In this document: in pieces, positions 2,630 through 51,509 of the stretch
How positions within the stretch are numbered: position 1 is the first letter of the stretch
Layout of the letters: every line of letters starts with the position of its first letter
Source of the DNA: Minisyncoccia bacterium
GTDB lineage: Bacteria > Patescibacteriota > Minisyncoccia > Phycocordibacterales > CAJBRS01
Reading direction: 5' to 3'
DNA: 64,000 nt
Assembly: GCA_038215155.1 (NCBI GenBank)
Contig: JBBQRF010000002.1
Location: 50,712-114,711, forward strand
Notes under the pieces: model-generated
What the model saw: the letters and a program-made list of their open reading frames with translations, nothing else
Databases searched by the model: none
What the model was told of the DNA's origin: nothing
Program-made: the position numbers and the translations under genes

Positions 2630-2995
2630 TTAAGAAACCTTTTGATTGAGATGAGTCTTACAAGTACGGGCAGCCGCATTGGCTTCTAATCTTTCTATTT
2701 CAATATCTTTACCACAAACTTCACATTTTCCGTACTCTCCTTTCTCCATTTTTTCTAAAGCCAGATTAATATCTTGTAATTGGGGTTCCAACTTGCTCAT
2801 TATGGCTGCATCTCCCTCAATACTCTCGATCTTATCAGCCACCTCATTACGATCAGCAGAAAGAATATCTAAATTCTCGGCGATTGGTTCCCAGTCATTG
2901 GGGTTGTTAGGGTTCTGCCGGCTAACTCCTGACAATTCGCTAATCAAAGTTTCTTTTTCCTTCTCTAATTTTTCTTTAAAGTGATTTGTATCCAT
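2630..2995 (-). CDS. DksA/TraR family C4-type zinc-finger protein
   Basis: N-terminal coiled coil plus C-terminal CxxC-(17)-CxxH finger (CEVCGKDIEIERLEANAAARTCKTH). Confidence 0.75.
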   Translation of the reverse strand: MDTNHFKEKLEKEKETLISELSGVSRQNPNNPNDWEPIAENLDILSADRNEVADKIESIEGDAAIMSKLEPQLQDINLALEKMEKGEYGKCEVCGKDIEIERLEANAAARTCKTHLNQKVS

Positions 2996-3007
2996 GGAGT
3001 GATTTTA

Positions 3008-3925
3008 TTAGTTATTTCCCCTATTAGCAAGGTAACGACTAAGAATTTCATCAAAGGCGTTCTGACTTTTTACGAAAATTATAGTCGCGGGATCAATAAA
3101 AGAATAAATAAAAGTAGGATTACCACCATCTTCTAAAAGAACTCTAGCGTCACGATTATCGATAATTCTATCGACAAATGTTCGAGCAGAAGAAGTGGCG
3201 GAGTCAGTCGGCAAATTAAAAAGAGAACCAAGATCGTTAGAAATATTAGGTTCCCATTGGAGCATTCCCGGAAAAGCATTGGCATACGAATCACTTTTAA
3301 GGATGAGAACAGGTTCATTGCCTGAACTATTTTGATAATAACCTACAATGTAATCATTTTGGATGGATCTAAATAGATTGCCTGGCATGCGGCTCTGTAG
3401 AAGATTAAGGAAATTCGGAGCATTTAGATGTTCGCGAGCCGAGTGGCCATTTTGCGCGTCTAAATTACCTTTAACAGTAATTATCACATTTTCAATCGAA
3501 CCACTTTCTAAGATACTCTTATTGGCAACTAACCCATGAATTAGTCCATCCAATGTAACGTTATCGAGCTTCAACTCTACTGTTTTGTCGGTGACAATGA
3601 TTGTTCGAGCGACAGCCACTGGAAGAACGGTGTTGTTATGAGGACGGAAAATAAAATATCCCACAATGGCTAAACCAGAAGTAACTAAAATTGCACTAAG
3701 AATGATGAGGACAATACGTTTTTTGGATTCGGTAGATACTTCTTCGCTAGCTACACCCTGTCTTTCTTGACGACGTTTTTCCGCCACGGCCATTTTAATA
3801 ACGGAAACGTTGTCTCGTTTAATAGCCTCTGCCACATCAGTTTGGTAGGTTTTAATATTTCTTAACGGCTCTTCCGCCTTTTCTTTTTTAGCTTTTTCTA
3901 AGGCTTCTTCTAAATCAGAACTCAT
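3008..3925 (-). CDS. Hypothetical single-pass membrane protein
   Basis: One TM helix (RIVLIILSAILVTSGLAIVGYFIF) after a charged N-terminus. No recognisable catalytic motif. Confidence 0.5.
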   Translation of the reverse strand: MSSDLEEALEKAKKEKAEEPLRNIKTYQTDVAEAIKRDNVSVIKMAVAEKRRQERQGVASEEVSTESKKRIVLIILSAILVTSGLAIVGYFIFRPHNNTVLPVAVARTIIVTDKTVELKLDNVTLDGLIHGLVANKSILESGSIENVIITVKGNLDAQNGHSAREHLNAPNFLNLLQSRMPGNLFRSIQNDYIVGYYQNSSGNEPVLILKSDSYANAFPGMLQWEPNISNDLGSLFNLPTDSATSSARTFVDRIIDNRDARVLLEDGGNPTFIYSFIDPATIIFVKSQNAFDEILSRYLANRGNN

Positions 3926-6102: not shown

Positions 6103-6627
6103 CTAACCTCGCTTTCTATTTCCCGTGCTCATTAAATATTTTCGCGGAGCAACATCTAGATCTAAAAAATCATCTACTGCCTCTTTTAATTTTCCGGATG
6201 CTGATTTACCAAAGGAAACCCCTTCCACCTGGCAGCCATTCATTTGTAGATATTCCACTAAAGGGATGAAGTCACCATCGCCAGAAACTATTACTACTGC
6301 ATCAATCTTAGGAGCTAGTTTTATAGCATCTACGGCGAGACCGACGTCCCAATCGCCCTTTTTTGAGCCACTGGAAAAGACCTGGAGGTTTTTAGTTTTA
6401 GTCTCAATACCCATTTTTACTAAGGCCTCAAAGAAATTTTTCTCGTCCCCCGCTTCGGTAGTAATTACATAGGCTACCGCCCGGACCAATATTCGTCCTG
6501 CTAAGGCATCTTTTAAGATGGCGGCAAAATTTACCCGCGCTCGATAGAGATTTTTTGCACTATGATAAAGATTTTGAGCATCAATAAAAATCCCAACGCG
6601 TTGTTCTTTATGTTTGATAACAGCCAT
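6103..6627 (-). CDS. NYN/LabA-like (PIN-fold) domain protein
   Basis: VGIFIDAQNLYHSAKNLY N-terminus and the acidic residues of the NYN family. Confidence 0.75.
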   Translation of the reverse strand: MAVIKHKEQRVGIFIDAQNLYHSAKNLYRARVNFAAILKDALAGRILVRAVAYVITTEAGDEKNFFEALVKMGIETKTKNLQVFSSGSKKGDWDVGLAVDAIKLAPKIDAVVIVSGDGDFIPLVEYLQMNGCQVEGVSFGKSASGKLKEAVDDFLDLDVAPRKYLMSTGNRKRG

Positions 6628-6639
6628 ATTGAGGTAACT

Positions 6640-6942
6640 CTACTTTTTTAGATCCAGTTTTTTGAGAACTGACTGATAGCGCTTAGGATCTTTCTTTTGA
6701 AGATAGCGTAAGTGACTTTGCCGATCAGCTACTAGCTGAAGCAAACCACGACGAGAATGATTATCTTTGTGATTTTTCTTTAGGTGTTTAGCCAATTCAT
6801 CAATTCTTTTACTCAAAATAGAAACCTGCACCTCCGGAGAACCAGTATCTGTCTCATGAATACGGCCTTCTTTGATTATTCGCTGTTTTTTGGTTTTAGT
6901 AAGCATTGAACAAATATTAACACGAAAGGTCATTTTATGCAA
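6640..6942 (-). CDS. rpsO: 30S ribosomal protein S15. The called start is TTG. An in-frame ATG three codons downstream (about 6933) is the more likely start.
   Basis: HSRRGLLQLVADRQSHLRYLQKKDPKRYQSV matches the S15 signature. Lies upstream of pnp. Confidence 0.9.
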   Translation of the reverse strand: MHKMTFRVNICSMLTKTKKQRIIKEGRIHETDTGSPEVQVSILSKRIDELAKHLKKNHKDNHSRRGLLQLVADRQSHLRYLQKKDPKRYQSVLKKLDLKK

Positions 6943-6962
6943 TTTTTCAGGGACAGGGTATA

Positions 6963-7898
6963 ATGTTTTACGACATGGACCTATTAGAGCTCAAACGACA
7001 GTTTCTCGAGCATGTAGAAATTGAAAAAGGCCGGAGTCTCAAAACCGTCAGGAATTATGAACACTATTTAGATAGGTTTTTTGAATTTTCTAAAATAAGC
7101 ACTCCCTCGGATATCACGGAAGAGCTCATTCGTCAGTACCGTCTCTGGTTGAATCGTCAGTCTGACGGGAAAAATGGGACATTAAAAAAACGAACGCAGA
7201 ATTATTACTTAATTGCTTTGCGCTCTTTTTTAAAATATTTAATCAAACGTAAAATCCCTTCTCTTTCACCCGACACTATTGAATTGGCAAAAGTGCCTGA
7301 TCGATCATTGGATTTAATTGGTCACGAAGATCTAAAGCGATTACTAGTGGCTCCGGAATCGGAGAAAGATGAACTAAAAGGCCTGCGAGACAAAGCTATT
7401 TTAGAATTGTTTTTCTCTACTGGCCTGCGTGTTTCCGAGTTATGCTCTCTTTCCCGTGATTTGGACCTGAGAAAAGACGAATTTTCCGTTAGGGGTAAGG
7501 GAGAAAAAGTACGAGTTGTTTTTCTATCTAACGAGGCGAAGGCTGCTATAAAAAAATATTTAGATAAGAGAGTGGACGTAGAAGATGCCCTTTTCGTCCA
7601 ATTAAAAAACCCGATTGGTAAGAAAGAGGAGGCCAAAGAACTGAGTCGGCTAACGGCGCGCTCTATAGAGAGAATCGTCAAATATTACGCTGTCAAAGCG
7701 GGAATCTCCAAAAAGGTTACTCCTCATGTCATTCGTCATAGCTTCGCCACTGACCTCTTAGAGAACGGCGCGGACCTACGCGCCGTTCAAATGCTTCTCG
7801 GCCACGCTAATATTACTACTACTCAAATTTACACCCATATTACCGACAAGCATCTAAAAGAGATCCATAAGAACTTCCATAATAGGAGAAAGAACTAG
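6963..7898 (+). CDS. xerC: Tyrosine site-specific recombinase XerC/XerD family
   Basis: C-terminal catalytic box HVIRHSFATDLLENGADLRAVQMLLGHANITTTQIYTHI with conserved R..HxxR..Y. Confidence 0.9.
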   Translation: MFYDMDLLELKRQFLEHVEIEKGRSLKTVRNYEHYLDRFFEFSKISTPSDITEELIRQYRLWLNRQSDGKNGTLKKRTQNYYLIALRSFLKYLIKRKIPSLSPDTIELAKVPDRSLDLIGHEDLKRLLVAPESEKDELKGLRDKAILELFFSTGLRVSELCSLSRDLDLRKDEFSVRGKGEKVRVVFLSNEAKAAIKKYLDKRVDVEDALFVQLKNPIGKKEEAKELSRLTARSIERIVKYYAVKAGISKKVTPHVIRHSFATDLLENGADLRAVQMLLGHANITTTQIYTHITDKHLKEIHKNFHNRRKN

Positions 7899-8009
7899 TT
7901 AGTTGACTTATGTTTGGTGAGTGTTAAGATTTTCCATCGAGACTGCTCTGAGTAGAGTGAACTAGTTCTTAAACAAACAACAAACAATAATCAAAAAGAA
8001 AGACCGAAA

Positions 8010-8384
8010 ATGCTGGACCTAAGAATCAATCATCCGTTCGAAATTATTATGGGCTGCCCGGGTAAAAGTCCGGAAATGGCAGCACTAACCAAGCGGCTCA
8101 ATAGCCCTACGGGCATCAAAAGCTTTGTGGCCAGGATTAAAGATACTTGGCAAATTTGGATGGAGGGGCGAACTCGTGAGGGTGTCGCCGTCGTTGCTCG
8201 TAAGACTTTCGGATCCTGTTGGGCAAAACACCGGCGCGATGAATTCTCTCTCAATACCACAGGGTCCAAAATTGACGTGGCCTTTGTGGAAGCGCTGACT
8301 CATGAGCCGAAGAAAGAACTTTTTTCACCATTCGTCTCCAGGAAGGATTCCTTGAAGAACTGGATTCAGAAGAAAATCGAGTAA
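8010..8384 (+). other. GC-elevated region with overlapping ORFs on both strands. Either an orphan 124-aa ORF or a structured ncRNA gene. It ends at a rho-independent terminator at 8531-8570.
   Basis: Local GC clearly above the flanks. Four ORFs over 60 aa on both strands. No protein family recognised. Confidence 0.3.
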
Positions 8385-8530
8385 CAGTAACTAAGCTCAT
8401 TGAATACGTTTTACAGGAACTAACGGAATTGAGTTTTAACAAAGGTACCATACTCCCCCCGCTCACCGCGAAGAAGAATAGACCTTCTCGCTCCTGCCGC
8501 CCGCGGCAAAAATTGCATCCAGCCTAAGTT

Positions 8531-8570
8531 TCGAACTTACCGTCTCTTTAATCCTCCTCGAGGGTAAAGA
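8531..8570 (+). terminator. Rho-independent terminator upstream of xth
   Basis: gtctcttta...taaagagac 9-bp stem followed by TTTTTATTT. Confidence 0.6.
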
Positions 8571-8609
8571 GACTTTTTATTTATCAATGTTTCACGATAA
8601 GATAGTTTC

Positions 8610-9925: not shown

Positions 9926-11419
9926 CTACTCCACCCAGTATTTTTTCCTAATCTCTTTTACCTCTTCTTCCTCCATTTTCTCCTTAACCTTTTTGCCTTT
10001 TTCCCCCATTTTTCTTAATTCTCCTTCGGAAAATTTGCTTAATTCAATAGCCTTACCCTCTAGATATTTTTTAGTATTTAAGATCGGATCATCCAAGACT
10101 TCTTCCAATAAGGCGTGCAAAATATAGCCAATTTTAGGTCCCGAAGGGAGCTCGGCGACTTCCATTATTTGACCGCCGTTAATCTTAAGCATAGAAACGG
10201 AAACTGGGTCGTGCATCACTTCTTCAATCATGGATTTATATTTGCGTAACCGGTAAGGATTTTCTTTAGGTCTCCCGGTGCCTACCCGATCACAGATACG
10301 TAAATTCATTAAATTCCAAACATTTTCTTTTCCAACATTTTTTACCAATCTTCTGACGGCGGAAAGGGTAATTTGCTCTGTATCAGAAAAGAACATATGC
10401 CAACGAACTAGTTTCGCAACCTCGTCAATAATTTTTTTAGGGAATCTTAAATCGCCAAGAATTTTTTTAGCCATTCTTTCCCCCACTACGTCGTGTCCAT
10501 AAAACGTCCAATCCCCTTTTTCATTAGACCACCTTCGGGCGTGCGGCTTAGCAATGTCGTGAAGTAACGCAGCCAAACGAATTTCCAATGACCAACCCTT
10601 ATCCGCGGCGGCCTGGAAACTTTTTAGGAGATGCTCAAAGACATCATAAGCATGAGCTTGATTTTGCTTAATCCCTTCCGCTTTGGCTAATTCGGGAATG
10701 ATAAATTTTAAAATACCTATATTATTAGCCATATTTAGGGCATTTGCTGGTTTCTGTGACATAGTAATGCGGACAAACTCTTCTCGAATTCTTTCTTTGG
10801 CGATGTTCTTTAAGAGACTGGCATCGTTTTTGATTGCTACCTCAGTGTTACTTTCAATTTTAAAATTGAGCTCGGCAGCTAAGCGAATAGCGCGAAGAAT
10901 TCTCAAACCATCTTCCTTAAATCGTTCTTCTGGATTTTCCACTGTTCGAATGATTTTTTTCTTTAGATCGCTTTGTCCTTCATATAAATCAACAATTTCA
11001 ACCTCCCACTCCCCTTTTAATTCGTTAAGGAGCTTCAGCGCAATAGCGTTAATGGTGAAATCCCGCCGTTTAATATCATCGGATAGATTGTTGCTAAAAG
11101 TAACATGGTCCGGATGACGATTGTCAGAATAATCAGCTTCTAATCGATAAGGAGTGACTTCTACCACCTTCAGGCTTTCATTAAGCGTTTCCTCACTCAC
11201 CACCCCGACTGTGCCGTAGTCATTTTCATAAAAAGTTTTATCAAAGAGAGAAATAATCTTGTCAGGCGCCGCGTTAGTAGTAATATCCCAGTCTTTAGGA
11301 GCTCTCTCTAATAGAAGATCACGAACACAGCCTCCAATTAAATAAGACTCAAAACCAGCTTTTTCCAGCCGGGCAGTTATTCGTGAAACCTCGAGAGGGA
11401 TGGCAAATTTTTTTAACAT
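9926..11419 (-). CDS. cca: CCA-adding tRNA nucleotidyltransferase with C-terminal HD domain. The track ORF extends to 11551 only by reading through the tRNA-Arg gene. The true start is the MLKKFAIPLE ATG at 11419.
   Basis: GGCVRDLLL nucleotidyltransferase motif, ...DITT..., and HD motif LLHDIAK. Confidence 0.88.
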   Translation of the reverse strand: MLKKFAIPLEVSRITARLEKAGFESYLIGGCVRDLLLERAPKDWDITTNAAPDKIISLFDKTFYENDYGTVGVVSEETLNESLKVVEVTPYRLEADYSDNRHPDHVTFSNNLSDDIKRRDFTINAIALKLLNELKGEWEVEIVDLYEGQSDLKKKIIRTVENPEERFKEDGLRILRAIRLAAELNFKIESNTEVAIKNDASLLKNIAKERIREEFVRITMSQKPANALNMANNIGILKFIIPELAKAEGIKQNQAHAYDVFEHLLKSFQAAADKGWSLEIRLAALLHDIAKPHARRWSNEKGDWTFYGHDVVGERMAKKILGDLRFPKKIIDEVAKLVRWHMFFSDTEQITLSAVRRLVKNVGKENVWNLMNLRICDRVGTGRPKENPYRLRKYKSMIEEVMHDPVSVSMLKINGGQIMEVAELPSGPKIGYILHALLEEVLDDPILNTKKYLEGKAIELSKFSEGELRKMGEKGKKVKEKMEEEEVKEIRKKYWVE

Positions 11420-11433
11420 TGGGCTTTCTACGG

Positions 11434-11505
11434 TGCTCCCGGCAGGACTCGAACCCACAATACGACGTCCGAAGCGTCGCGTGATATCCATTTCACCACG
11501 GGAGC
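11434..11505 (-). tRNA. tRNA-Arg (anticodon TCG)
   Basis: Cloverleaf read on the minus strand. Acceptor GCTCCCG/CGGGAGC, anticodon stem CGACG/CGTCG with loop CTTCGGA, T-arm GGGTTCGAGTCC. Confidence 0.85.
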
Positions 11506-11590
11506 AATTGAGGAATATGAATATCATACGAGAAAAATAGACAAACACCAAGATTTAAATTAAAATTTAAGGACTTTTCTCTAAAGTATT

Positions 11591-11661
11591 GCGGGTATGG
11601 TTTAGTGGTAGAACACGTCCTTGCCAAGGACGAGACCCGAGTCCGATTCTCGGTACCCGCA
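11591..11661 (+). tRNA. tRNA-Gly (anticodon GCC)
   Basis: GCGGGTA acceptor, anticodon loop TTGCCAA, T-arm CGAGTCCGATTCTCG. No encoded CCA. Confidence 0.88.
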
Positions 11662-11903
11662 CATTTAACTAAAGTCCAGTGTCCCTTATTTGTCCTAAAT
11701 ATTAAAAATCTGAAACGGCTCTATCTATAGGTCTTTACATATTTACTGTGGATAAGTCGGGGGATATGTGTATAAAAGACAGGAATTTTGTCCTAAAAAG
11801 GGGTTACCTTAGGATAAATTAAGGCTCGATACCCTTATGTTTCACGTGTAACTAATATAATAAGGTAATCATGAAACTTTAAGGATATTTTAACCTTATT
11901 TTA

Positions 11904-12323
11904 ATGAATTTTCACCTCTCATGCCTTAAGATGTTTCTTGTGAACCATCTTAAAATTGGGAAAATAGGGGAGGATTTAGCTTGCGATTACCTAAAGGAGA
12001 AAGGTTTCTTGGTGGTGAATCGAAATTTTCGTAAAAAATGTGGAGAAATAGACATTGTAGCCAAAAAACAAGGGAAACATCACTTTGTAGAAGTTAAAAC
12101 AGTTTCATGTGAAAATGTCACTAGTTTTGCACGCCGGTCAAACTATTATAGGCCGGAAGATAACATTCATTCTTATAAGATAGCCCGTTTAAGACGGGTA
12201 ATTCAGTTGTATTTGATCGAAAATTATGTAAAAACGGATTGGCAGTTCCACGCTATTACTATTTTATACTCTCCTATCAATAATGAATCGAGAATTGAGA
12301 TGCTGGAAAACCTTGTCCTTTAA
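11904..12323 (+). CDS. yraN: YraN family (UPF0102) endonuclease. The start is possibly at 11931.
   Basis: IGEDLACDYLKEKGF...EIDIV...FVEVKT motif pattern. Confidence 0.8.
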   Translation: MNFHLSCLKMFLVNHLKIGKIGEDLACDYLKEKGFLVVNRNFRKKCGEIDIVAKKQGKHHFVEVKTVSCENVTSFARRSNYYRPEDNIHSYKIARLRRVIQLYLIENYVKTDWQFHAITILYSPINNESRIEMLENLVL

Positions 12324-12468
12324 AATGTCCTTTATAATATAGAGCTATTTTATTTCGGGGCGCCGGGAAAATATGGTAAAACTAGCTCCACCATAATTTT
12401 GAGTTGGTTGTCTCTTTACCATAGATTTATTCTCCCCGGTTGTAATTTCCGGGTTCGAATCCCTCCCT

Positions 12469-12541
12469 TCGGGGCGCCGGGATTCGAACCCGGAGTCGCT
12501 TGATCCCAAATCAAGAATGTTAGCCGTTACACCACGCCCCG
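12469..12541 (-). tRNA. tRNA-Pro (anticodon TGG)
   Basis: Minus-strand cloverleaf. 7-bp acceptor CGGGGCG/CGCCCCG, anticodon loop TTTGGGA, T-arm CCGGGTTCGAATCCCGG. Confidence 0.85.
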
Positions 12542-12624
12542 TTTTTAGATTGAAAAGTGTAGCATGATTTCGAAATTTATTGTATCCTTAAATTAGGTTA
12601 TCAATTATTTTTTATTTAATATTT

Positions 12625-13500
12625 GTGAAAATAGTCACTCATAGCGGCAGCTTTCATCAGGATGAACTTTTTGCTATCGCCGCCTTACAAATGCTTTATC
12701 CGGACGCAGAGATTATCCGCTCTCGCGACCCTAAGATTATCGCCACCGCCGACATGGCCGTGGACATTGGGGGTGTTAATGATGCTGCCCAAAATAAATT
12801 TGACCATCACCAAGAGGGGGGAGCGGGACGGCGTGGCCAGAACGGCATGCCTTATGCCTCTTTTGGTCTCGTCTGGAAGAAATTCGGTCGAGAAATTTGT
12901 GGTGGGCGCGCCGAAGTAGCTGATTTAGTCGATCGTAAAATGATTCAAGCCATTGACGCTTCTGACAACGGCGTAATGGTCTATGCTCCGGTTAATAAGG
13001 AAATTCAACCCTATCTTTTTGATAATTTTCTTAACGCCATTACTCCTACCTGGCGAGAAGGAAAAAGTATTGACGCGGCCTTTAAGCAAATTCTTGGCAT
13101 CGTTAGACTAGTGTTAGAAAAAGAAATTGAGAAGGCAAAATTTTTCTTTGAAGAAACGGAATTAGTACGGCAAGCTTACAGAGCTACTGAAGACAAAAGA
13201 ATTATCGTCTTAGACCATCCATATCCATGGAAAAGCGTCTTAACTAAATTCCCTGAGCCGCTTTTTGTTATTTATCAAGATCAAAATACAGACGAATGGG
13301 TAATTATGGCCATGAAAAAAGATCCCCGAGCTTTTATTTATCGAAAATTATTTCCGGCTAGCTGGGCAGGGAAGATAGGGGAGCCGCTAGTCGAAGTTAC
13401 CGGAATTAAAGATGCGGTTTTTTGCCACAACAAACGCTTCATCTCCAAGGCGTGGTCTAAGGAGAGCGCGGTAAAGATGGCTAAAATGGCTTTAGAATAA
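12625..13500 (+). CDS. MYG1 family (UPF0160) metal-dependent hydrolase
   Basis: MKIVTHSGSFHQDELFA N-terminal signature. Confidence 0.8.
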   Translation: MKIVTHSGSFHQDELFAIAALQMLYPDAEIIRSRDPKIIATADMAVDIGGVNDAAQNKFDHHQEGGAGRRGQNGMPYASFGLVWKKFGREICGGRAEVADLVDRKMIQAIDASDNGVMVYAPVNKEIQPYLFDNFLNAITPTWREGKSIDAAFKQILGIVRLVLEKEIEKAKFFFEETELVRQAYRATEDKRIIVLDHPYPWKSVLTKFPEPLFVIYQDQNTDEWVIMAMKKDPRAFIYRKLFPASWAGKIGEPLVEVTGIKDAVFCHNKRFISKAWSKESAVKMAKMALE

Positions 13501-13501
13501 A

Positions 13502-14839
13502 ATGGATCCCGACCTCCAAAACAATAAGTCTTTTTTAAAGCCCTTGGTTGAAGATGGAAAATTACTTTCTGCTTTTGGAATAGAAATTCCTCAAAAGGAA
13601 AATTTTCCGAACTTTTTTCTAAAATTTTATCCTCAAGATTTTATAGTTGAAGAAATATCAAAAGAAGGAAAAATATATACGATCGGCAGCACTAAACCGG
13701 AAAATTATGGAGGGGAAAAGTTAGGAAATTATCATATGACCTTGGTCAAATGTAATTTAGGGACCCTTCAGGCGGTTGAAAACTTAGCTTCCCGACTCAA
13801 TATTTCTGTTAATAATATTGGATACGCAGGACTAAAAGATGACGATGCCGTTACTAGTCAGAGAATCTCTATCACTGGAGTCAGATTGAATGATTTACTA
13901 AAAATTAAGGTTTCTAACTTTTTTTTAAAGGAGATAGAAGAAAACGACAATTTTATACAAAAAGGTCAACTAAAAGGAAATCGATTCACTATCCTGTTGA
14001 GAAAAACGGAAAATTTTGAAGAAGAAACTTTTATGCAACGACTGGACACAGTGCGCCAAAAAGGATTTTATAATTTTTATTACTTACAACGTTTTGGAAC
14101 ACCTAGGTTAATAAACCATTTGTGTGGATTTTTAATTTTGCAAGAAAATTATGAGAAGGTTGTATATTCTGCTATTTGTGAGGAAGGGATAACTGATAGA
14201 ATTCATCTAAATAAAATTAGGAAGGAAGCCCAAAAAAAATTTGGTGATTGGATGTATTTAAAAAATCTGTTTAAGGAAGTTGAGAGCGAATGTTTTTATG
14301 AAAATAAATTGATTAGTTATTTATTAAATTCCCCTGATGATTTTGAGGGTGCTTTAAAAGAAATTCCTGACCTAGTTACTATTTGGATATATGCAACCTC
14401 AGCGTGGCTCTTTAATCATAAGCTGTCTCAATGTATAAAAACTTCTACAAAAATCCCAAAGACCTTACCATTATTTCTCACTCACGACTCTAGGATTCAA
14501 GATAGTTATAAATATTTAACGTCAAAACTCTATCTATCAACTCCCGTTTTTAAAAATCTCTCTACAGTTGCCCCCAACCTACTTCTGAACAACAGATTCA
14601 TCAATACTATTTCTAAAGTTAATATAACCAAGGTAGAGAATGTGGAGGAAGGAATTATTTTAAGTTTCGATCTACACAAAGGGGAGTATGCCACCACTTT
14701 TTTATCACATTTAGTAAATCTCATTTCTTACTTGCCACCCGCTGATATGAATTTCATGCCTATAAATATAATGAAAAATCTTGAATCAGAAATATCTCTA
14801 AACTTCTTTACAGAAGCGAAAAAAGCTGTATTTAATTGA
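13502..14839 (+). CDS. truD: tRNA pseudouridine(13) synthase TruD-like
   Basis: YPQDFIVEE (compare NPEDFVV), YAGLKDDDAVTSQ (compare FAGQKDKHAVTEQ), and NFYYLQRFG (compare NYFGAQRFG). Confidence 0.7.
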   Translation: MDPDLQNNKSFLKPLVEDGKLLSAFGIEIPQKENFPNFFLKFYPQDFIVEEISKEGKIYTIGSTKPENYGGEKLGNYHMTLVKCNLGTLQAVENLASRLNISVNNIGYAGLKDDDAVTSQRISITGVRLNDLLKIKVSNFFLKEIEENDNFIQKGQLKGNRFTILLRKTENFEEETFMQRLDTVRQKGFYNFYYLQRFGTPRLINHLCGFLILQENYEKVVYSAICEEGITDRIHLNKIRKEAQKKFGDWMYLKNLFKEVESECFYENKLISYLLNSPDDFEGALKEIPDLVTIWIYATSAWLFNHKLSQCIKTSTKIPKTLPLFLTHDSRIQDSYKYLTSKLYLSTPVFKNLSTVAPNLLLNNRFINTISKVNITKVENVEEGIILSFDLHKGEYATTFLSHLVNLISYLPPADMNFMPINIMKNLESEISLNFFTEAKKAVFN

Positions 14840-15042
14840 CTTTTTCCTCGAATATGGTATACTGCTTACCAGAACTGGTTCAGTGACGAAATTCCCTTGA
14901 ATTTAAACGGATAGTTTAAAGCGAGGGTTCCTTTGCAGAGCTTGCTCTGCCCTTTAGGCGCACGTTGCGTTATGAATGAGGATATATAAAACCGGCTAAG
15001 ACCGATTGTTTTAAAGTTTCTGAGGACTAGTAGGTCATAAAC

Positions 15043-16014
15043 ATGAGAAATAATAACAACGACGGACAGAGAACTGTCTTCGGAATGCTGACGGCGCGAT
15101 GCGTCGTGACGGACCGTGGAATAAAGATGGACCGGTATACCGGCATAGGCATCGTTCCGACAGAGATTCTGAAAGACGACGGTTATCTTGGGGACTACCG
15201 AAACGAAGTGGAGGGGCAGACGTTAGTAATGCACCATGAGAAACGGAACGCCTTTATGCGGGCAGAACCGTTGGGAGGAAGAAGGTTTATCCCTGTTTTC
15301 GATAAGAAGCAGGATGGCACTGACGCTTCCCCCCAAGTGGGGGATGAAATCATGATTCTACTTCAAGTGAATCATCCGGATTATGATCCGCGCGATTTAC
15401 AACATCGCTACTGGATTCTGTCATGGGCATCAATGGAGTCTTATCTTCAAGCTACCAAAGAGTGCGAACGGCAGAATGCCAAGATTCCGGAGCTGGAAGG
15501 CGAAATCGCCGCCGAGGAGCGCACCCTGTGGAGAATGCAGTCGGAGATGCTCAATCTCGACCTGGAATGGATGACGCCCGCCAAGATCAAGGATCGTTTG
15601 TACGGCAGGAATGGAAACATGGTTCCTCCCGATGCAAAGTGGTTTCAACGCGATCTGGAAATCACCAAGCAGCTGGTAGGGGCCGATGCGGCTAAGCGAC
15701 TGGAACTGATCGAACAGATTCGTAAAGGCAAAGAGTCTAGTGCTCGCCCGGCCAAGCTGATGATGCTCCGTACTGGCCTCTTCATCCGGCAAGAAACAGC
15801 ACGGCCTTCTCGGCGTCCTGAACGAATGGACGCAGAGCAAAAAGAAGCGCTGCAGGAGCACAAATCAGACGGAGCGCCGCTAAGTGCTCCTATTCCGTTC
15901 CCTACGCCCGTGGCTAGTTCGTCTGGTGAAGCCCAGGCCAAGAAGGTCCGAAAGGCGAAGCCTAGTGCCAAGGGGTCAAAGCCGAAAACGAAAACGGCAG
16001 CCGTCGCCGCCTAA
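15043..16014 (+). CDS. Hypothetical protein of atypical (high) GC composition. Central coiled coil and a Lys/Ala/Pro-rich basic C-terminal tail. No recognised domain.
   Basis: A 323-aa ORF far longer than the overlapping alternative-frame ORFs. GC about 52-58% against about 40% in the flanks. Confidence 0.6.
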   Translation: MRNNNNDGQRTVFGMLTARCVVTDRGIKMDRYTGIGIVPTEILKDDGYLGDYRNEVEGQTLVMHHEKRNAFMRAEPLGGRRFIPVFDKKQDGTDASPQVGDEIMILLQVNHPDYDPRDLQHRYWILSWASMESYLQATKECERQNAKIPELEGEIAAEERTLWRMQSEMLNLDLEWMTPAKIKDRLYGRNGNMVPPDAKWFQRDLEITKQLVGADAAKRLELIEQIRKGKESSARPAKLMMLRTGLFIRQETARPSRRPERMDAEQKEALQEHKSDGAPLSAPIPFPTPVASSSGEAQAKKVRKAKPSAKGSKPKTKTAAVAA

Positions 16015-16043
16015 CGCAGTAGATGGGTTCTAGTCCCATCAAA

Positions 16044-16080
16044 CCCCGTTATCATGGCAACATGGTAGCGGGGATTTTTA
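16044..16080 (+). terminator. Rho-independent terminator after the high-GC gene
   Basis: CCCCG...CGGGG hairpin followed by ATTTTTAT. Confidence 0.55.
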
Positions 16081-16092
16081 TATAATAGTTAT

Positions 16093-16410
16093 ATGGGATT
16101 AAATTTTCAAAGGAATATCGAAAACTTCATTTGTGAAAAATGTGGTTTTGAGGTGGAAGGTAGTGGCTATACTAATCATTGTCCGAAGTGTCTTTGGAGT
16201 AAGCATGTAGATATTCATCCCGGAGATCGCCTGAGTCATTGTGGAGGGCTGATGAAGCCTTCTCGAATTGAGGGTAAAACCGGCGAGTGGGTGATTGTTC
16301 ATCAATGTGAACGTTGTGGCCACAATAAAAGAAATAAGGTAGACGTCAGTGATGACTTTGATCAAGTAATTAAGTTGACCTCGGTTCCGGCTAATGAGGC
16401 AAATAGTTAA
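16093..16410 (+). CDS. RNHCP domain protein (Cys-rich zinc ribbon)
   Basis: CEKCG...TNHCPKCLWSKHVD...HQCERCGHNK. Confidence 0.75.
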   Translation: MGLNFQRNIENFICEKCGFEVEGSGYTNHCPKCLWSKHVDIHPGDRLSHCGGLMKPSRIEGKTGEWVIVHQCERCGHNKRNKVDVSDDFDQVIKLTSVPANEANS

Positions 16411-17662
16411 AGAGGGAAGATTCGATGGATTTGAAATTTTCTACCAAGGTATTTAAATTTTTATTTAAATAGGTTCCGAGTGAAAAACCTGTTTCATTTC
16501 TAATATCTGAATTAATATAATTTAAAGTGATAGCTTGAAGATCTTGTAGGGAAGTATTACCGCTGTCGGTAACAGTGGTGGCGATAAGGGCAATTAAATC
16601 GCCATTCTGATTTAAAATTCCGCCTCCGGATGAGCCGCGCTCAGCAATGACGCTAGAGTTAGTGCGAATTAGATCCTTACCGTTGTTGGAGTTGAAAGTA
16701 TAAGTGGCAGTTATGTTTAGAGCCGAACTTTTAATTAATAAATTTCTTACTACAGCGGCGGAAGAAAGGCTGTTTGCTGGATAGCCAATTCCTAACACTG
16801 AAGTACCTACACTTAATGAGTCCGCAGTAACTTGAGGGGCTACATATGAAAAAGTAGAGGGGAGCGAGGCGCCGCCACTAGTGCCAATGATGGCAAGAAG
16901 AGCATAGTCGCCGGCACCAGTCTCTTGAGGTTGATAGACATCATTTATATTCTGTCCGTAGAGCCTAAGCCAGCTTGAGGAAATATAAATGAGATCGGCG
17001 CGATAAGCCGCGGCGGCGGGAGAGCCGCGGCGAATGAGGCAAGATTTATTCGGATCTTTTAAATAATCATTAAGGAGGAAATGATCGGCGACATGGGCAT
17101 TAGTTAATATTATTCCTCGCGGGTCAATAATGACGCCACTTCCAGTGACGATGGTGATTAGATTGCCAGACTGACTAGTACAATAAATATTCACGACTGC
17201 TCTTTCCGCTTTTTCTTGAAGATTTAGGGAGACTGAATTTGGAGAGGAAGTAACAATGGGAGTAAGAGTAGGCGAAGAAGCAATTTCTGGCGAGGGGGCT
17301 ATAGTAGCGGGCGTACTTATTATCTGGGATTTTTCGGGCAATATATCTGGCAATACTATGTTTGGAATAGTTGAAAATGGAAAGGGTTTAAATACCGGTG
17401 CTTCTAAAGAAAGGATCGGCAACTTTTTAAATTTTGCCTTAGTGGAGGTGGCATTGGAATTAGACTGAGTAGTTGAGGTAGGTATTTGTATTTCAACGGG
17501 CGCGGGTATTAGTGGCGCGAATGTAGAAAAAGAGCTAGGGGCTAATCGTTCTTCGAGGCCTGGTAGGGTAATTGGTTGAGAGATATGGTAAGGAGCATAG
17601 GGAATACCTAGAAGAGAGCCGATGGAGAGCAGCACCGAAATAAGATGAGATAGGGAATTCAT
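16391..17662 (-). CDS. Secreted trypsin-like (S1C/HtrA-type) serine protease with an N-terminal signal/TM segment and a Pro/Thr/Ser-rich linker
   Basis: Catalytic triad context ILTNAHV (His), ...DYALLAI (Asp), and GSSGGGILNQNGDLIALI (Ser). Confidence 0.8.
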   Translation of the reverse strand: MNSLSHLISVLLSIGSLLGIPYAPYHISQPITLPGLEERLAPSSFSTFAPLIPAPVEIQIPTSTTQSNSNATSTKAKFKKLPILSLEAPVFKPFPFSTIPNIVLPDILPEKSQIISTPATIAPSPEIASSPTLTPIVTSSPNSVSLNLQEKAERAVVNIYCTSQSGNLITIVTGSGVIIDPRGIILTNAHVADHFLLNDYLKDPNKSCLIRRGSPAAAAYRADLIYISSSWLRLYGQNINDVYQPQETGAGDYALLAIIGTSGGASLPSTFSYVAPQVTADSLSVGTSVLGIGYPANSLSSAAVVRNLLIKSSALNITATYTFNSNNGKDLIRTNSSVIAERGSSGGGILNQNGDLIALIATTVTDSGNTSLQDLQAITLNYINSDIRNETGFSLGTYLNKNLNTLVENFKSIESSLFNYLPH

Positions 17663-17730
17663 GTATGGTGCGGGATGGGAGAAAAATTCTTATTAATAAT
17701 TTGCCACATATATTGGATTTTAATTTAATG

Positions 17731-17801
17731 TGCGGGATGGGAGAATCGAACTCCCCACCTCAGTTTGGAAAACTGATGTTTTACCAATAAACTAATCCCG
17801 C
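17731..17801 (-). tRNA. tRNA-Trp (anticodon CCA)
   Basis: Minus-strand cloverleaf. Acceptor GCGGGAT, anticodon stem CAGTT/AACTG with loop TTCCAAA, T-arm GGGGAGTTCGATTCTCCC. Confidence 0.85.
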
Positions 17802-17843
17802 CTTACGAAATTATCCTAGCAAATCAGTGTTCTTTTGCAAAAC

Positions 17844-17873
17844 AAAAGGCCGGCGCGAAGCGCCGGCCTTTTG
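17844..17873. terminator. Bidirectional rho-independent terminator between tRNA-Trp and hup
   Basis: AAAAGGCCGGCGCgaagGCGCCGGCCTTTT. Confidence 0.75.
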
Positions 17874-17891
17874 ATCAGTGAGATCGACTTC

Positions 17892-18164
17892 TTATCTTAC
17901 TGCGTCTTTCAAAGCTTTAGCCGCTCTGAATTTAGGCACTCGCATTGCAGCTACATTAATTGATTCGCCAGTGCGAGGGTTTCGTGCAGTGCGAGCGGCT
18001 CTTTGTTTAGCTACAAAAATACCGAGACCTGAGATTGAAACTTCGTCTCCTTTTTTAAGAGTGGTTACAATGGTCTCAATCACCGTATCCATTACTTGCT
18101 CGGCCTGTACTCGAGTTCCTCCGAGTACCTGCTGAATAGCTTCTACAATTCCTGCTTTATTCAT
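17892..18164 (-). CDS. hup: DNA-binding protein HU
   Basis: MNKAGIVEAI...GFGIF...RNPRTGE signature. Confidence 0.93.
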   Translation of the reverse strand: MNKAGIVEAIQQVLGGTRVQAEQVMDTVIETIVTTLKKGDEVSISGLGIFVAKQRAARTARNPRTGESINVAAMRVPKFRAAKALKDAVR

Positions 18165-18243
18165 ATTAGGTTTTTTTAGTTTTTAATATTAGATATGACC
18201 GTTTCCATTATATATTAGGCCATTTTTGGCGCAAGCAGCAATT

Positions 18244-19776
18244 TTATCGAGCAAATTCTACAACTCTATTTTCGCGAATGACGGTAACTTTAATTTCACC
18301 CGGGTACTTTAGTTCTTCTTCAATTCTCTTAGCAATATCTTGGGCCATTTTTTTAGCTTCCAGATCAGTGACCTCGTTTGGAGTGACAAAAATGCGAATT
18401 TCCCGTCCAGCCTGAAGAGCATAAGATTTCTCTACGCCTTTAAAACTATTGGAAATAGCCTCTAAGTCACCCAATCGTTTTAAATAATGCTCCATGGTGT
18501 CTCGGCGAGCTCCAGGGCGCCCGCCAGAGATGGAGTCGGCCGTCTGAACAATGATGGACTCCACTGTCTCATAAGGGTATTCCTCATGATGGGCCTGCAT
18601 GGCTTTAATTATTTCTTCATTGGCGCCGAATTTTTGCAAAATTCGGCGCCCAATCTCCACGTGAGTACCTGCTACCTCGTGATCTACTGCCTTACCAAGA
18701 TCGTGAAGGAGAGCCCCTGCTTTGGCTATCTGGACATTTGCTCCTAATTCTTCCGCCAACATGCCCGCAATATGGGCCATTTCAATAGAATGTTGTAAAA
18801 CGTTTTGACCGTAACTAGTTCTGAAATAAAGTCTGCCTAAAATAGAAACGATTCGGGGATCTAGATTAAAGACACCCGTCTCATAAACAGCTTGTTCACC
18901 CTTTTCTTTAATAATCTTATTTATATCTTGTTTGGCTTTTTCTACTTCTTTCTCAATCTTGGCTGGTTGAATACGCCCGTCTTGGATAAGGGTCTCTAAG
19001 GCAAGGCGTGCCACCTGCCGTCGTACCGGATCAAATGAAGAAATGGTAATGGAGCCGGGAGTATCATCCACAATTATTTCTACCCCAGTTTCTCGCTCAA
19101 AGGCCTTAATGTTTCGGCCCTCCTTGCCAATGATTTTTCCTTTAATTTCATCTGAAGGAATATCTACGCTTGTGGTAAATAAATCAGCAGAGACGGAACT
19201 AGCCAAACGTTGAATTGTAGTGGAAAGAATATCTTTGGCTTTTTGCTCTAACTTCTCTTGACCAAAAGTCTCCAGTTTCTTCATACGAGTCAATATATCT
19301 TCCTCGTATTTCTTCTCTACACTTTGAAGCAAATGTTCTTTTGCTTCATTTTCTCCGAGGTGGGCAATTTTTTCGAGTTCCGTTCTTTTCTGACCCTCCA
19401 GACTATCAACTCTTTCTTTAATTTCTTTAATTTCAGAAATTTTAACTTTAATATTTTCTACTTCCTTATCAATATCCCCCTGGCGTGAGTCCAGAAGCTC
19501 TTCTTTTTTGATTAGGCGATCCTCAGTCTTTTTTAATTTATCTTCCTTTTCTTTAATTTCTTCTCGGAAAGCTTTTAAGGTGCCGGCCGCTTCCGTTTCC
19601 GCTCCCAATGTAATTTTTTTAGCTTCTTCTTTAGCATCAAGCATCATTTGCTTAATCTCTAACTCCATTGAACCTTTTCTACCCAGGGCCACCAATACAC
19701 GCAGAAAATAACCGATAGCAATTCCAACAACGCCGGTTGAGGCAAGCATTAGGAAGACAATTTTTATGGAAATCAT
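18244..19776 (-). CDS. rny: Ribonuclease Y
   Basis: N-terminal TM, coiled coil, KH (IGKEGRNIKAFE), and HD domain (LLHDLGKA). Confidence 0.92.
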   Translation of the reverse strand: MISIKIVFLMLASTGVVGIAIGYFLRVLVALGRKGSMELEIKQMMLDAKEEAKKITLGAETEAAGTLKAFREEIKEKEDKLKKTEDRLIKKEELLDSRQGDIDKEVENIKVKISEIKEIKERVDSLEGQKRTELEKIAHLGENEAKEHLLQSVEKKYEEDILTRMKKLETFGQEKLEQKAKDILSTTIQRLASSVSADLFTTSVDIPSDEIKGKIIGKEGRNIKAFERETGVEIIVDDTPGSITISSFDPVRRQVARLALETLIQDGRIQPAKIEKEVEKAKQDINKIIKEKGEQAVYETGVFNLDPRIVSILGRLYFRTSYGQNVLQHSIEMAHIAGMLAEELGANVQIAKAGALLHDLGKAVDHEVAGTHVEIGRRILQKFGANEEIIKAMQAHHEEYPYETVESIIVQTADSISGGRPGARRDTMEHYLKRLGDLEAISNSFKGVEKSYALQAGREIRIFVTPNEVTDLEAKKMAQDIAKRIEEELKYPGEIKVTVIRENRVVEFAR

Positions 19777-19950
19777 ATGGCGAATGTGATTTCGCCTTAG
19801 ACGCTAAGAGATGATGTATTCGATTCTTATGGTTTGTAACATGTGAACTTACGTTTGAAATGAAGGTGGGAGAGGTCGGAAAGTCAAAATCATCAGCTTC
19901 GGTCTAAAACAAAATCAAAATTTAATTTTAATGAATTTAATATACTAGAG

Positions 19951-20556
19951 TTATAAAACTTTGTCTATAAGACCATATTTTTTGGCTTCCTCGGCATTCA
20001 TCCAGAAGTTGCGATCAACATCCTTTTCTACCTTAGAAATGGATTGTCCGGTATTTTTAGCGAGCATTTTATTAAGAATTTCTCGATTCTTCAGGATTTG
20101 CTTGGCAGTAATTTCAATATCTGAGGCTTGACCTTCAACACCTCCGGAGGGTTGATGAATCATGATTTCTGAATTCGGCAGGCTAAATCTTTTACCTTTT
20201 TTGCCGGCTGATAGAATAAGCGCGCCCATAGAAGCAGCAATACCTACACAAATAGTAGAAACATCATTCTTAACGTGATGCATGGTATCAATGATGGCGA
20301 GACCTGCGGTGACCATGCCGCCGGGGGAATGAACATAAAGATTAATATCTTTTTTTGGATCTTCAGATTGTAAAAATAATAATTGAGCAATGACAATGTT
20401 GGCAACATTATCATCAATAGGGCTACCGAGGAAGATTATGTTTTCGCGAAGGAGGCGAGAATAAATATCATAAGCACGCTCGCCGAATTGAGATTTTTCT
20501 ATTACGGTTGGGATTAACATATGGGGCAAGTATAGTAAAAAGTCTCTAAATTGCAA
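19951..20556 (-). CDS. clpP: ATP-dependent Clp protease proteolytic subunit. The start is possibly at the MLIPTVIE Met, about 20520.
   Basis: IPTVIE...RIIFLG-type N-terminus. Active-site GxASMGA (GIAASMGA), and His in MIHQP. Confidence 0.93.
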
Positions 20557-20584
20557 ATAAGTCGCTTTTTCCCCGCTCCTACGA

Positions 20585-20662
20585 ACTTTTGTCGAGGCGC
20601 GTTAGTTAATTTGGGTCCGCTAGGCCAAGTCTTACCCTCGCCAAAAGTTGCAGGACGGATCC
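20585..20662. repeat. Copy 1 of a ~65-80 nt palindromic repeat element (second copy at 63053-63162)
   Basis: acttttgtcgaggcgcgtYagtYaatttgggtccgctaggccaagtcttaccctcgcYaaaagt is about 90% identical between the two loci, with 13-14-bp terminal inverted repeats. Confidence 0.8.
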
Positions 20663-20720
20663 AAAAGCGACACATTATGTTCCAGTGAAACTTTCAAATG
20701 AAACTTGTTACAATTACAGG

Positions 20721-21437
20721 ATGAGGTTACACAGATTTTTAATTGAGGAAGAAATTGGAGATAGAAAAGAAATTACTATCACCGATTCGGAGTTATTGCA
20801 TCAGTGGCGCAATGTTTTTCGGTTCACCACGGGAACACAACTTTTAACTTTTGACAATTCTGGTTTTGAGTACTTAGCTTTGATTTCTCGGATTTCCCAT
20901 TTAGGCGCTTCGCTGAAAATAATTAATAAAGAAGAGAGAGACTTAAGTGGACCGAAGGTTTCTCTTTTTGCTGCCCTAATTAAAAAAAGTAATTTTGAAT
21001 GGGTGGTGGAAAAGGCGACTGAGCTTGGGGTCTCTCGTGTGGTACCCATTATTTCTGATCGCAGTGAAAAGAAAGGATTGAATATGGTCCGGGCGAAAAA
21101 AATTATTAAGGAAGCTAGTGAGCAGTCGGGAAGAGTAAGATTGACGAAATTAAATTCGCCGATAAACTTGGAAGATTTAATAGTTAGTTTGGAGATTAAA
21201 AAAGGCAAGAAAATAAATAATATTGTCATTGATCCTACTGGTGACATTTTTCCACCATCAGAAAAATTTGCCGAAGAAGTCGGTGTATTTGTTGGACCAG
21301 AAGGTGGCTGGGCTGAACGGGAGCTTCAACTTTTCAAATTAAAAAATATTCCTATTTATAGTCTCGGCCCGCAAATTCTGCGGGCCGAGACAGCCGCCAT
21401 TGCCGTCACCAGCTTTCTTTTGCTGCCCCGACGTTGA
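20721..21437 (+). CDS. rsmE: 16S rRNA (uracil1498-N3)-methyltransferase RsmE. The ORF is open from 20685. MRLHRFLI is the probable start.
   Basis: MRLHRF N-terminus. PUA-like N-domain, and the SPOUT C-terminus GPEGGW...E...LGPRILRAETA. Confidence 0.85.
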   Translation: MRLHRFLIEEEIGDRKEITITDSELLHQWRNVFRFTTGTQLLTFDNSGFEYLALISRISHLGASLKIINKEERDLSGPKVSLFAALIKKSNFEWVVEKATELGVSRVVPIISDRSEKKGLNMVRAKKIIKEASEQSGRVRLTKLNSPINLEDLIVSLEIKKGKKINNIVIDPTGDIFPPSEKFAEEVGVFVGPEGGWAERELQLFKLKNIPIYSLGPQILRAETAAIAVTSFLLLPRR

Positions 21438-51149: not shown

Positions 51150-51509
51150 ATGACACGATCACTCAAAAAAGGTCCATTTGTGGACGCCAAATTATTAAAG
51201 AAGATTAGTGGAAAAAAGCCAGGAGAATCGGCGGTTGTTAAAACTTGGGCACGCCGCAGCGATATTAGTCCAGAAATGATCGGCTTTACTTTTGGAGTTC
51301 ACAATGGAAAGCAGCATTTAGAAGTCTTTGTTACAGAAGAAATGGTTGGCCACAAGCTAGGGGAATTTTCTCCTACTAAGAAATTCTTAAGACACGGAGG
51401 AAAGATGCAGAAGGAACAGGAGGCTGCCGCAAAAGAGGCGGAAATTAATGCCGCTAAGTCAGCACGCGCGGCGGCGGACGGCGCCACAAATAAGGCCCCC
51501 GCTAAATAA
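51150..51509 (+). CDS. rpsS: 30S ribosomal protein S19 with an ~27-aa Ala/Lys-rich C-terminal extension
   Basis: [10 protein letters not shown]...[13 protein letters not shown]... Confidence 0.95.

Follow-up and report, generated by a model that had tools for sequence, protein, structure and literature searches.

The window analysed here is a stretch of 64,000 nucleotides from a Minisyncoccia bacterium (contig JBBQRF010000002.1, positions 50,712 to 114,711), and the subject of the analysis is an orphan gene on its + strand at 15043..16014. According to the open reading frame (ORF) listing, the gene encodes 323 amino acids followed by a stop codon and has a GC content of 0.535, with values of 0.60, 0.42 and 0.58 at codon positions 1, 2 and 3 (GC1, GC2 and GC3). 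Upstream of it lies truD (13502-14839; PF01142, E 5e-61) and downstream an RNHCP-domain gene (PF12647) on the + strand at 16093-16410. The original prediction had singled out this ORF between truD and the RNHCP gene as foreign-looking and rich in GC, and the compositional analysis bore this out. The results showed that the orphan gene forms the top GC peak of the 64 kb (0.535, against a window mean of 0.409; z = 4.6 over 972-bp windows with an SD of 0.027), the second peak reaching 0.483. In 300-bp sub-windows the GC content was 0.50-0.56 within the orphan gene, 0.29-0.35 within truD and about 0.43 within the RNHCP gene. Relative to the 67 window ORFs of at least 100 amino acids, the z score was 3.6 for gene-level GC and 4.2 for GC3 (0.58 versus 0.362 ± 0.052). 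Amino acid composition accounts for about 0.05 of the GC excess of 0.12, as the GC content expected from the protein is 0.464 compared to a mean of 0.413 (z 1.9). The remaining excess is synonymous, the observed GC3 of 0.58 comparing with 0.38 expected.

Comparison with the ribosomal-protein genes, which the original prediction had proposed as a check, showed the orphan gene to be strongly deviant. Its codon adaptation index (CAI), calculated with EF-Tu and the ribosomal-protein block as reference, was 0.571, the lowest of the 67 window genes (z -3.2). Codon choice is shifted towards G/C-ending codons, the frequencies in the orphan gene and in the ribosomal-protein genes being 0.48 versus 0.08 for CTG, 0.44 versus 0.09 for ACG, 0.45 versus 0.17 for CCG and 0.64 versus 0.30 for AAG. 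The idea that high GC3 marks highly expressed genes was rejected, given that GC3 is lower in HU (0.30), in EF-Tu (below 0.39) and in the listed ribosomal-protein genes (about 0.36-0.45) and that the CAI of the orphan gene is the lowest of all. The GC excess is not an adaptation to the preferred codons of the organism. The RNHCP gene, for its part, ranks third from the bottom of the window in CAI (0.597).

The original prediction had also allowed for misassembled junctions at about 14840 and 16090. This was not borne out: a Logan contig of 8,135 bp from run SRR19962015 matched window positions 12503-20637 with 0 mismatches, both junctions included, so that an independent assembly rules out a chimera. 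The same gene order was also seen in other metagenomes.

Relatives of the orphan protein are few. A word-indexed search of 5.8 billion proteins with the single sequence retrieved the query alone, and a word-indexed search with the family alignment retrieved nothing beyond the query and P0004. An exhaustive HMMER pass over 1.84 billion representative proteins recovered the query and four relatives, namely P0002 (46% identity to the query), P0003 (42%), P0004 (35%) and the fragment P0005, which comes from a 722-bp contig without flanking genes. A sixth family member (42% identity) was found through contigs of TruD homologues, in locus L007/L008. No homologue from outside the clade was present among the 1.84 billion representatives, and no relative was traced to another lineage. 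A genome-contig scan with TruD gave no match, a metagenome scan with the family alignment gave no confirmed locus, the viral contigs and the phage collection contained no match to the orphan gene, and no paralogue was found within the window.

The genomic context of the relatives is conserved. In L002/L005 (Ca. Paceibacterota Chersky_89, JADGRH010000006.1) the genes stand in the same order as in the window, MYG1-TruD-gene-RNHCP. In L003 (SRR20217191) the order is TruD-gene-hyp109-two AAA_14/DUF4143 ATPase genes-RNHCP-HU, and in L007/L008 (SRR31802160/59) it is TruD-gene-hyp116-RNHCP. The contig L004 (JGI 3300081902, 1.6 kb) carries the 3′ end of TruD (E 1e-9) followed by the orphan gene. L008 is identical to L007 where the two overlap, and L007 stops just before the position of RNHCP in L008. 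Altogether, truD is immediately upstream in five of five independent loci that have upstream sequence, the window included, and the RNHCP gene is linked downstream in all four loci long enough to reach it, with three inserted genes before it in L003 and one in L008. Further loci with TruD relatives (L009-L012, 42% identity) contain neither the orphan gene nor the synteny. Divergence of the orphan protein parallels that of TruD (47% versus 51% identity in one comparison and 40% versus 43.5% in another).

The small gene directly downstream of the orphan gene in L003 (11249-11578, 109 amino acids) and in L007 (7176-7526) and L008 (3020-3370, 116 amino acids) is absent from the window and from L005. 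The two proteins are about 30% identical to each other (E 1.5e-5) and have no Pfam match. The syntenic block of L003 is interrupted at 2793-3233, 6141-8316, 11808-14192 and 15254-15803 by genes of defence or mobile type (DUF6922/AbiEii, three AAA_14-DUF4143 ATPases, RelB/YafQ and Fic), whose GC3 of 0.27-0.43 is below that of the core genes of that genome (about 0.50-0.58).

No sign of insertion was found at the borders of the orphan gene. Direct repeats bracketing it were not detected, no mobility gene is adjacent, and the nearest integrase-like gene lies 7 kb away. The sequence ATGGGTTCTAGTCCCAT behind the stop codon, with a tRNA-like hairpin at 16022-16045, was rejected as a tRNA fragment or att site, since it gave no tRNA call and has no second copy. 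The nearest tRNA genes, tRNA-Gly at 17730-17801 and tRNA-Pro at 12469-12541, are 1.7 kb and 2.5 kb off. Among the features by which horizontally acquired genes are usually recognized, atypical composition was found; absence from the locus, insertion signatures and donor homologues were not. Because of the synteny after truD, the TruD-parallel divergence and the lack of insertion signatures, the orphan gene appears to be native, vertically inherited and restricted to one small Paceibacteria clade. A recent acquisition, for example from the high-GC host of an episymbiont, as the original prediction had envisaged, is not supported. Together with a chimeric assembly it is an extremely improbable explanation of the locus: the compositional contrast itself speaks for it and nothing else does, while orthologues with TruD-matching divergence from five further metagenome sources, all independent (L002/L005, L003, L004, L006, the latter being the 722-bp contig, and L007/L008), the identical independent assembly, the clean borders and the empty phage and viral searches speak against it. 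The original prediction had named homologues of similar GC in sister genomes of the candidate phyla radiation (CPR) as evidence for a native and ordinary gene. Such homologues exist, and the gene is accordingly read as native; it is not ordinary, as the GC excess turned out to be a conserved trait of the family. The other reading offered there, a lineage-specific and possibly nucleic-acid-associated protein, fits better, all members having a basic C-terminal cluster.

To judge from its pattern of conservation, the orphan gene is a genuine protein-coding gene. Identity between the window and L002 copies was 0.59, 0.64 and 0.39 at codon positions 1, 2 and 3, with 0.27 expected by chance and similar values in all orthologue pairs. 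The order position 2 > position 1 >> position 3 held in every pair, and TruD shows the same pattern. At position 3, identity between orthologues was 0.30-0.39, compared to 0.25-0.27 expected by chance, and again TruD is alike. The ORF is intact in five lineages (323-373 amino acids), the sixth sequence being the fragment, and the start codon at 15043 is supported by a conserved Asn-rich N-terminal peptide. These data suggest that the gene is under purifying selection and that its synonymous sites are saturated. In the Chersky_89 orthologue, the Logan call (L002 10001) begins 15 codons too late compared to L005 9956; the upstream ATG is supported by the conserved N-terminal peptide MVKPNRNHRQGGVFGMLMAR, and the NCBI version has 338 amino acids (P0126).

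In AT-rich genomes, an island of high GC is often the mark of a structured RNA, and this one could accordingly be a large structured non-coding RNA, or could hide an antisense overlapping gene, rather than being primarily a protein gene. In favour of this, the RNA folds better than shuffled versions (see below), and long antisense open frames are present, of 144 codons in the window and 243-252 codons in L003 and L002. The stop-free alternative frames that the original prediction had noted on both strands do exist (143 and 108 amino acids on the minus strand, 90 and 63 on the plus strand). Their lengths are, however, about what codon usage predicts in synonymous-codon shuffles (P 0.04-0.54 for the antisense open length), and the in-register antisense frame contains 8 stops, opposite 2 TTA, 2 CTA and 4 TCA sense codons. 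An antisense overlapping gene was rejected on these grounds. The RNA has no Rfam match and no positionally conserved structure. Because of the three-periodic conservation and an ORF kept across six lineages, one of them represented by a fragment, the gene is better taken as protein-coding than as a non-coding GC island, and we consider the non-coding or antisense explanation very improbable.

The orphan gene probably forms a transcription unit of its own, comprising a promoter, a leader, the coding sequence (CDS) and a terminator. The upstream non-coding region reported previously was confirmed as a spacer of 203 bp. A sigma-70-type promoter (TTGACT-16 nt-(TG)gTATACT) is predicted on the + strand at 14836..14863, overlapping the truD stop codon; a promoter scan gave agreement at 10 of the 12 consensus positions plus the extended -10 TG, and the orthologous loci align at both the TTGACT box and the TATA-type -10 box. 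It is followed by a structured 5′ leader of about 176 nt (14867..15042, + strand; 180-225 nt in the orthologues), with a Shine-Dalgarno-like AGG at its end, about 9 nt upstream of the start codon. Downstream of the gene, the terminator claimed by the original prediction was likewise found: an intrinsic terminator is predicted on the + strand at 16044..16080, with a hairpin at 16044-16073, whose 13-bp stem includes 7 G-C pairs, and the T-run ATTTTTAT after it. The L004 orthologue is also followed by a hairpin and a T-run.

Blocks of leader sequence are kept in five loci, while identity among the encoded proteins is no more than 28-46%. The leader core, GGAA..AGGTTCnTTGACAAA..CCT-hairpin-AGG..GCAGGTTCC (14867..14932, + strand), has a mean column identity of 66%, and a covariance model of a 74-nt core scored 54.8 bits in the window and 66-76 bits in the orthologues. 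A regulon sharing this motif was rejected, as the model found no other copy in 167 kb covering the window and the loci. The RNAalifold consensus of the leaders contains six helices with 33 pairs, in which 90% of the cells are paired, compared to 77% in shuffled alignments and 39-58% in slid controls. Two-sided compensatory changes occur in 18 of the 33 pairs, compared to 8.7 ± 1.8 in shuffles, none of 500 shuffles reaching the observed value. The single-sequence fold of the leader gave a z score of -1.87. In one of the pairings, sequence immediately before the ribosome-binding site takes part. Neither the leader nor the RNA of the orphan gene matched Rfam at the gathering threshold or at E <= 10, and a conserved upstream ORF in the leader was rejected, as L003 has none in the leader alignment. 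These results suggest that the leader is new and gene-specific; a regulatory role, possibly autoregulation, may be proposed for it. Long structured autoregulatory leaders of genes for nucleic-acid-binding proteins are known from the cspA 5′-untranslated region (5′-UTR) and from ribosomal-protein operons. The orphan leader resembles these in layout only, with 180-225 nt and covarying helices between a strong promoter and the start codon; unlike them, it matches no Rfam family and precedes this gene alone.

The orphan protein has a mass of about 36 kDa. Pfam gave no match for any member even at E <= 5, NCBIfam none at E <= 1, and the PDB sequences none at E <= 10; PHROGs and PADLOC gave no meaningful match, the sole one, to Cas10 with E = 0.12 in one member, being noise. 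The claim that the protein carries no recognizable domain holds at this level, and a literature search returned nothing specific to the gene. An AlphaFold2 model built from a five-sequence alignment was of moderate confidence, with a predicted local confidence (pLDDT) of 68 overall and of 65-89 over amino acids 10-245. After an Asn/Gln/His-rich N-terminal peptide that is present in all members, the model predicts an OB-fold-like beta-barrel at amino acids 13-130 (15079..15432, + strand) and a helical hairpin at amino acids 131-158 (15433..15516, + strand). What the original prediction had called a central coiled coil amounts to no more than this predicted hairpin. The region best conserved in the family is a small alpha/beta domain at amino acids 160-245 (15520..15777, + strand), which contains the motifs LWRMxSE, WxxPxK, VPxDAxW and GxxSxxRPxxLxMLRTG and has no fold match. 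The remainder, amino acids 246-323 (15778..16011, + strand), is a low-confidence and probably disordered tail, mostly with pLDDT below 50, which has a GC content of 59% and is not alignable. It includes the Lys/Ala/Pro/Thr-rich basic segment that the original prediction had pointed out, AKKVRKAKPSAKGSKPKTKT, at amino acids 299-318 (15937..15996, + strand). The sequence of this cluster is not conserved; 6-12 Lys or Arg residues nevertheless occur within the last 35 residues in six of six family members, in tails that are otherwise unrelated and that as a whole are neutral or acidic in L007 and L006.

Any similarity of the protein to OB-fold proteins (bacterial SSB, PriB and RPA domains; CusF/SilB-like and NTR barrels) is in predicted fold only. 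It differs from the described OB families (SSB, S1, CSD, tRNA_anti) in having no sequence similarity to them in Pfam, NCBIfam or the PDB, its predicted barrel has 7-8 strands rather than the canonical five, and Foldseek returned no significant match. Its C-terminus is basic, whereas the tip of SSB is acidic and of DDDIPF type, and its best-conserved part is a second domain with no fold match. Bacterial proteins with histone H1-like, Lys/Ala/Pro-rich tails include HupB/MDP1, Hc1 and AlgP. In Mycobacterium smegmatis, Ku has a Lys/Ala/Pro-rich tail made of PAKKA repeats (PMC3553676). The orphan protein shares with such tails a short Lys/Ala/Pro/Thr-rich C-terminal basic cluster; unlike them, the cluster is limited to about 20 residues without a tandem repeat, its sequence is not conserved, and DNA binding by it is only putative. 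The low-complexity tails that had been reported on S10, S19 and S5 in the window (48236-48676, 51150-51509 and 56461-57075) are real Lys/Ala/Thr/Pro-rich extensions, and their genes are not GC3-rich.

Because an OB-like barrel is predicted together with a basic tail, nucleic-acid binding is the most likely activity of the product. That the orphan product is a nucleic-acid-binding protein, possibly feeding back on its own leader, is possible rather than probable. The neighbourhood is rich in genes of RNA metabolism, including those for the CCA-adding enzyme, MYG1, TruD and RNase Y; this is only a weak hint at function, since the orphan gene seems to be transcribed on its own.

The GC excess was found in every copy of the gene, with GC contents of 0.51-0.61 within flanks of 0.35-0.44. 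GC and GC3 were 0.535 and 0.58 in the window (mean GC3 of the window genes, 0.36), 0.604 and 0.73 in L005 (z 4.9 and 4.4 versus 19 neighbouring genes), 0.579 and 0.65 in L007 (flanking GC3, 0.29-0.42), 0.537 and 0.545 in L003 (GC of the flanking genes mostly 0.35-0.43), 0.51 and 0.595 in L004 (0.41 and 0.31 in the partial upstream truD) and 0.58 and 0.595 in the L006 fragment. In the L005/L002 copies GC3 reached 0.73-0.75. The excess is bounded by the start and stop codons, since the leaders (0.34-0.47) and the 3′ spacers (0.40-0.44) of five loci are at background. It extends over both conserved and variable residues, and the C-terminal tails, although no longer alignable, still have a GC content of 0.50-0.65 in all five orthologues. 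These values show that high GC is inherent in the coding sequence and has been conserved, rather than being left over from a recent import.

The same observations bear on an ancient acquisition, in which the ancestor of the clade would have received the gene from a donor of very high GC content, with amelioration still incomplete. Consistent with such an origin, each of the three codon positions deviates in composition, the preferred codons (CTG, CCG, ACG, GCC, AAG) look like those of high-GC genomes, the CAI is the lowest in the window, and the amino acid composition is shifted as well, as the expected GC given above shows. A rough decay estimate based on third-position identity would allow a GC3 of about 0.5 to remain from a donor GC3 of about 0.9. 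However, the synonymous sites appear saturated and GC3 nevertheless stays 0.12-0.32 above background, reaching the values seen in L007 and L005/L002; the completely turned-over tails are still GC-rich; the excess ends exactly at the start and stop codons; no donor homologue was found among the representatives searched; and mRNA folding beyond composition (see below) is not predicted. Ordinary mutation pressure should have erased a GC richness kept for so long, and since completely turned-over sequence is still GC-rich, a fading relic of an old transfer is the poorer fit. We consider an ancient transfer unlikely, and the same low likelihood applies to it as an explanation that remains for the less extreme copies. 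Because saturated synonymous sites and turned-over tails both remain GC-rich, a GC-favouring force may still be acting on the CDS, a conclusion that we hold tentatively.

The leading candidate for such a force is selection on the mRNA. Predicted folding energies were -0.27 to -0.37 kcal/mol per nt for the orphan genes and -0.14 to -0.24 for neighbouring genes. Against shuffles that preserve protein and codon usage, local folds (base-pair span up to 100 nt) gave z scores of -1.96 in the window, -4.52 in L005, -3.60 in L007, -1.64 in L003 and -1.05 in L004, compared to +1.3 to -1.2 in eight control genes (Mann-Whitney p = 0.0016 for controls versus the five orthologues). Global folds gave -2.5 to -2.9 in the window, -3.2 to -3.6 in L002 and -4.1 in L007, and about 0 in L003 and L004. 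In the explanation proposed here, selection for a compact and stable mRNA fold would keep the CDS GC-rich, and such a fold may keep the message functional for long, protect it from single-strand RNases or allow its translation to be controlled. The product, with its predicted OB-like barrel and its basic cluster, would bind nucleic acid, possibly its own leader.

Several results weigh against this explanation. In L003 and L004 the folding excess is small, and the L006 fragment shows none. A positionally conserved structure in the CDS was rejected (alifold z -1.0 with three sequences and -2.2 with five), and the long inverted repeats of the orthologous CDSs lie at non-homologous positions; this fits selection on how compact or stable the RNA is in general, not on one particular fold. 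Selection on structure does not obviously explain the raised GC1 and GC2 or the Ala/Arg/Pro/Gly-rich tails. In the L003 genome the orphan gene stands out less, since other core genes there reach GC3 values of 0.50-0.58, and the leader covariation comes from five sequences with the structure taken from the same alignment.

Codon-level selection apart from folding would account for the choice of synonymous codons in another way, through rare NNG/NNC codons that throttle or time translation, through dependence on particular tRNAs, or through avoidance of A-rich codons that ribosome-dependent toxins or RNases cleave. In its favour, the codons chosen by the orphan gene are the genome's rarest, and its CAI is the lowest of all; conserved residues exceed variable ones in GC3 in the window (0.70 versus 0.52), in L004 (0.68 versus 0.56) and, slightly, in L003; and RelB/YafQ and other toxin modules are present in the sister locus L003. 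No such difference between conserved and variable residues was seen in L005 and L007, however, and the raised GC1 and GC2 and the tail composition are left unexplained by codon choice, which makes codon-level selection improbable as the cause. The 64-kb window contains four tRNAs, three of which (Arg-TCG, Gly-GCC and Pro-TGG) are clustered at 11432-12541.

GC-biased gene conversion, or another local bias of repair or recombination acting at a recombination hot spot, would also amount to a continuing GC-favouring force, and one that acts at all codon positions and in unconstrained tails, as observed. Recombination is reportedly associated with elevated GC3 in bacteria. The effect, however, stops at the borders of the CDS, with leaders and 3′ spacers at background in the five loci; there is no sign of recombination or of multiple copies; and an excess of folding over synonymous shuffles is not expected from it. 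A conversion bias is thus quite improbable.

Taken together, selection on the mRNA is ranked first as the cause of the GC excess, although we stop short of calling it probable, and it is followed by ancient transfer, then codon-level control or avoidance of toxin and RNase sites, and then biased gene conversion. The account as a whole, namely a native, clade-restricted gene forming its own unit, with a nucleic-acid-binding product and GC-favouring selection at the mRNA level, may be right, and we give it about an even chance. A more speculative extension, which we regard as doubtful, is that the whole transcript is selected, the GC-rich CDS and the leader together making a compact and long-lived RNA. 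In an episymbiont that grows very slowly, such an RNA could serve as an mRNA that is stored or protects itself; alternatively, it could be a scaffold for its own OB-fold, basic-tailed product, forming a ribonucleoprotein or acting as a dual-function RNA.

The orphan gene resembles compositionally atypical genes of horizontal origin in having the highest GC and the lowest CAI of the window and a preference for G/C-ending codons. Unlike horizontally acquired islets, it keeps both its position and its composition in all sister lineages where it occurs, shows no signs of mobility, lacks homologues elsewhere, and has an anomaly that does not reach beyond the start and stop codons. Elsewhere in the window, a 124-amino-acid ORF on the + strand at 8010-8384, which has no Pfam match, ranks second there both for high GC3 (0.544) and for low CAI (0.581). 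A XerC-like integrase gene (6963-7898) lies a short way upstream of this ORF, which has no homologue in the sister loci and is a better candidate than the orphan gene for a truly recent acquisition. It is followed by about 200 bp of non-coding sequence (8385-8590) with a GC-rich core, ccccccgctcaccgcg...gccgcccgcggc, and a terminator-like hairpin, GTCTCTTTA...TAAAGAGAC, with a T-run at its end; this stretch has no Rfam match at E <= 5 and could be a small RNA or a 3′-UTR. The cumulative GC skew has a minimum near 11.3 kb in the profiled stretch 10000-21000, which could reflect a change in gene-strand bias or the proximity of a replication landmark.

Atypical GC content and codon usage are routinely taken as evidence of horizontal transfer, and the orphan gene, in which this signature is stably inherited by lineages with saturated synonymous sites, provides a clean counter-example. 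It is also a natural test case for the forces that may keep one bacterial gene from reaching mutational equilibrium, be it the folding or stability of its mRNA, biased conversion or control at the codon level. To our knowledge, most lineage-specific genes of Paceibacteria come without any functional handle. The present analysis adds a protein family that had not been described before, for which about 15 billion predicted proteins yielded six members, and a likewise undescribed conserved 5′ leader RNA in Paceibacteria. If selection on the whole transcript were true, the gene would be a rare bacterial case in which selection at the RNA level has, through deep time, held the composition of one gene at a great distance from the genomic equilibrium. 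If the product is an abundant nucleic-acid-binding protein, the finding would bear on how ultra-small CPR cells organize or protect their nucleic acids.

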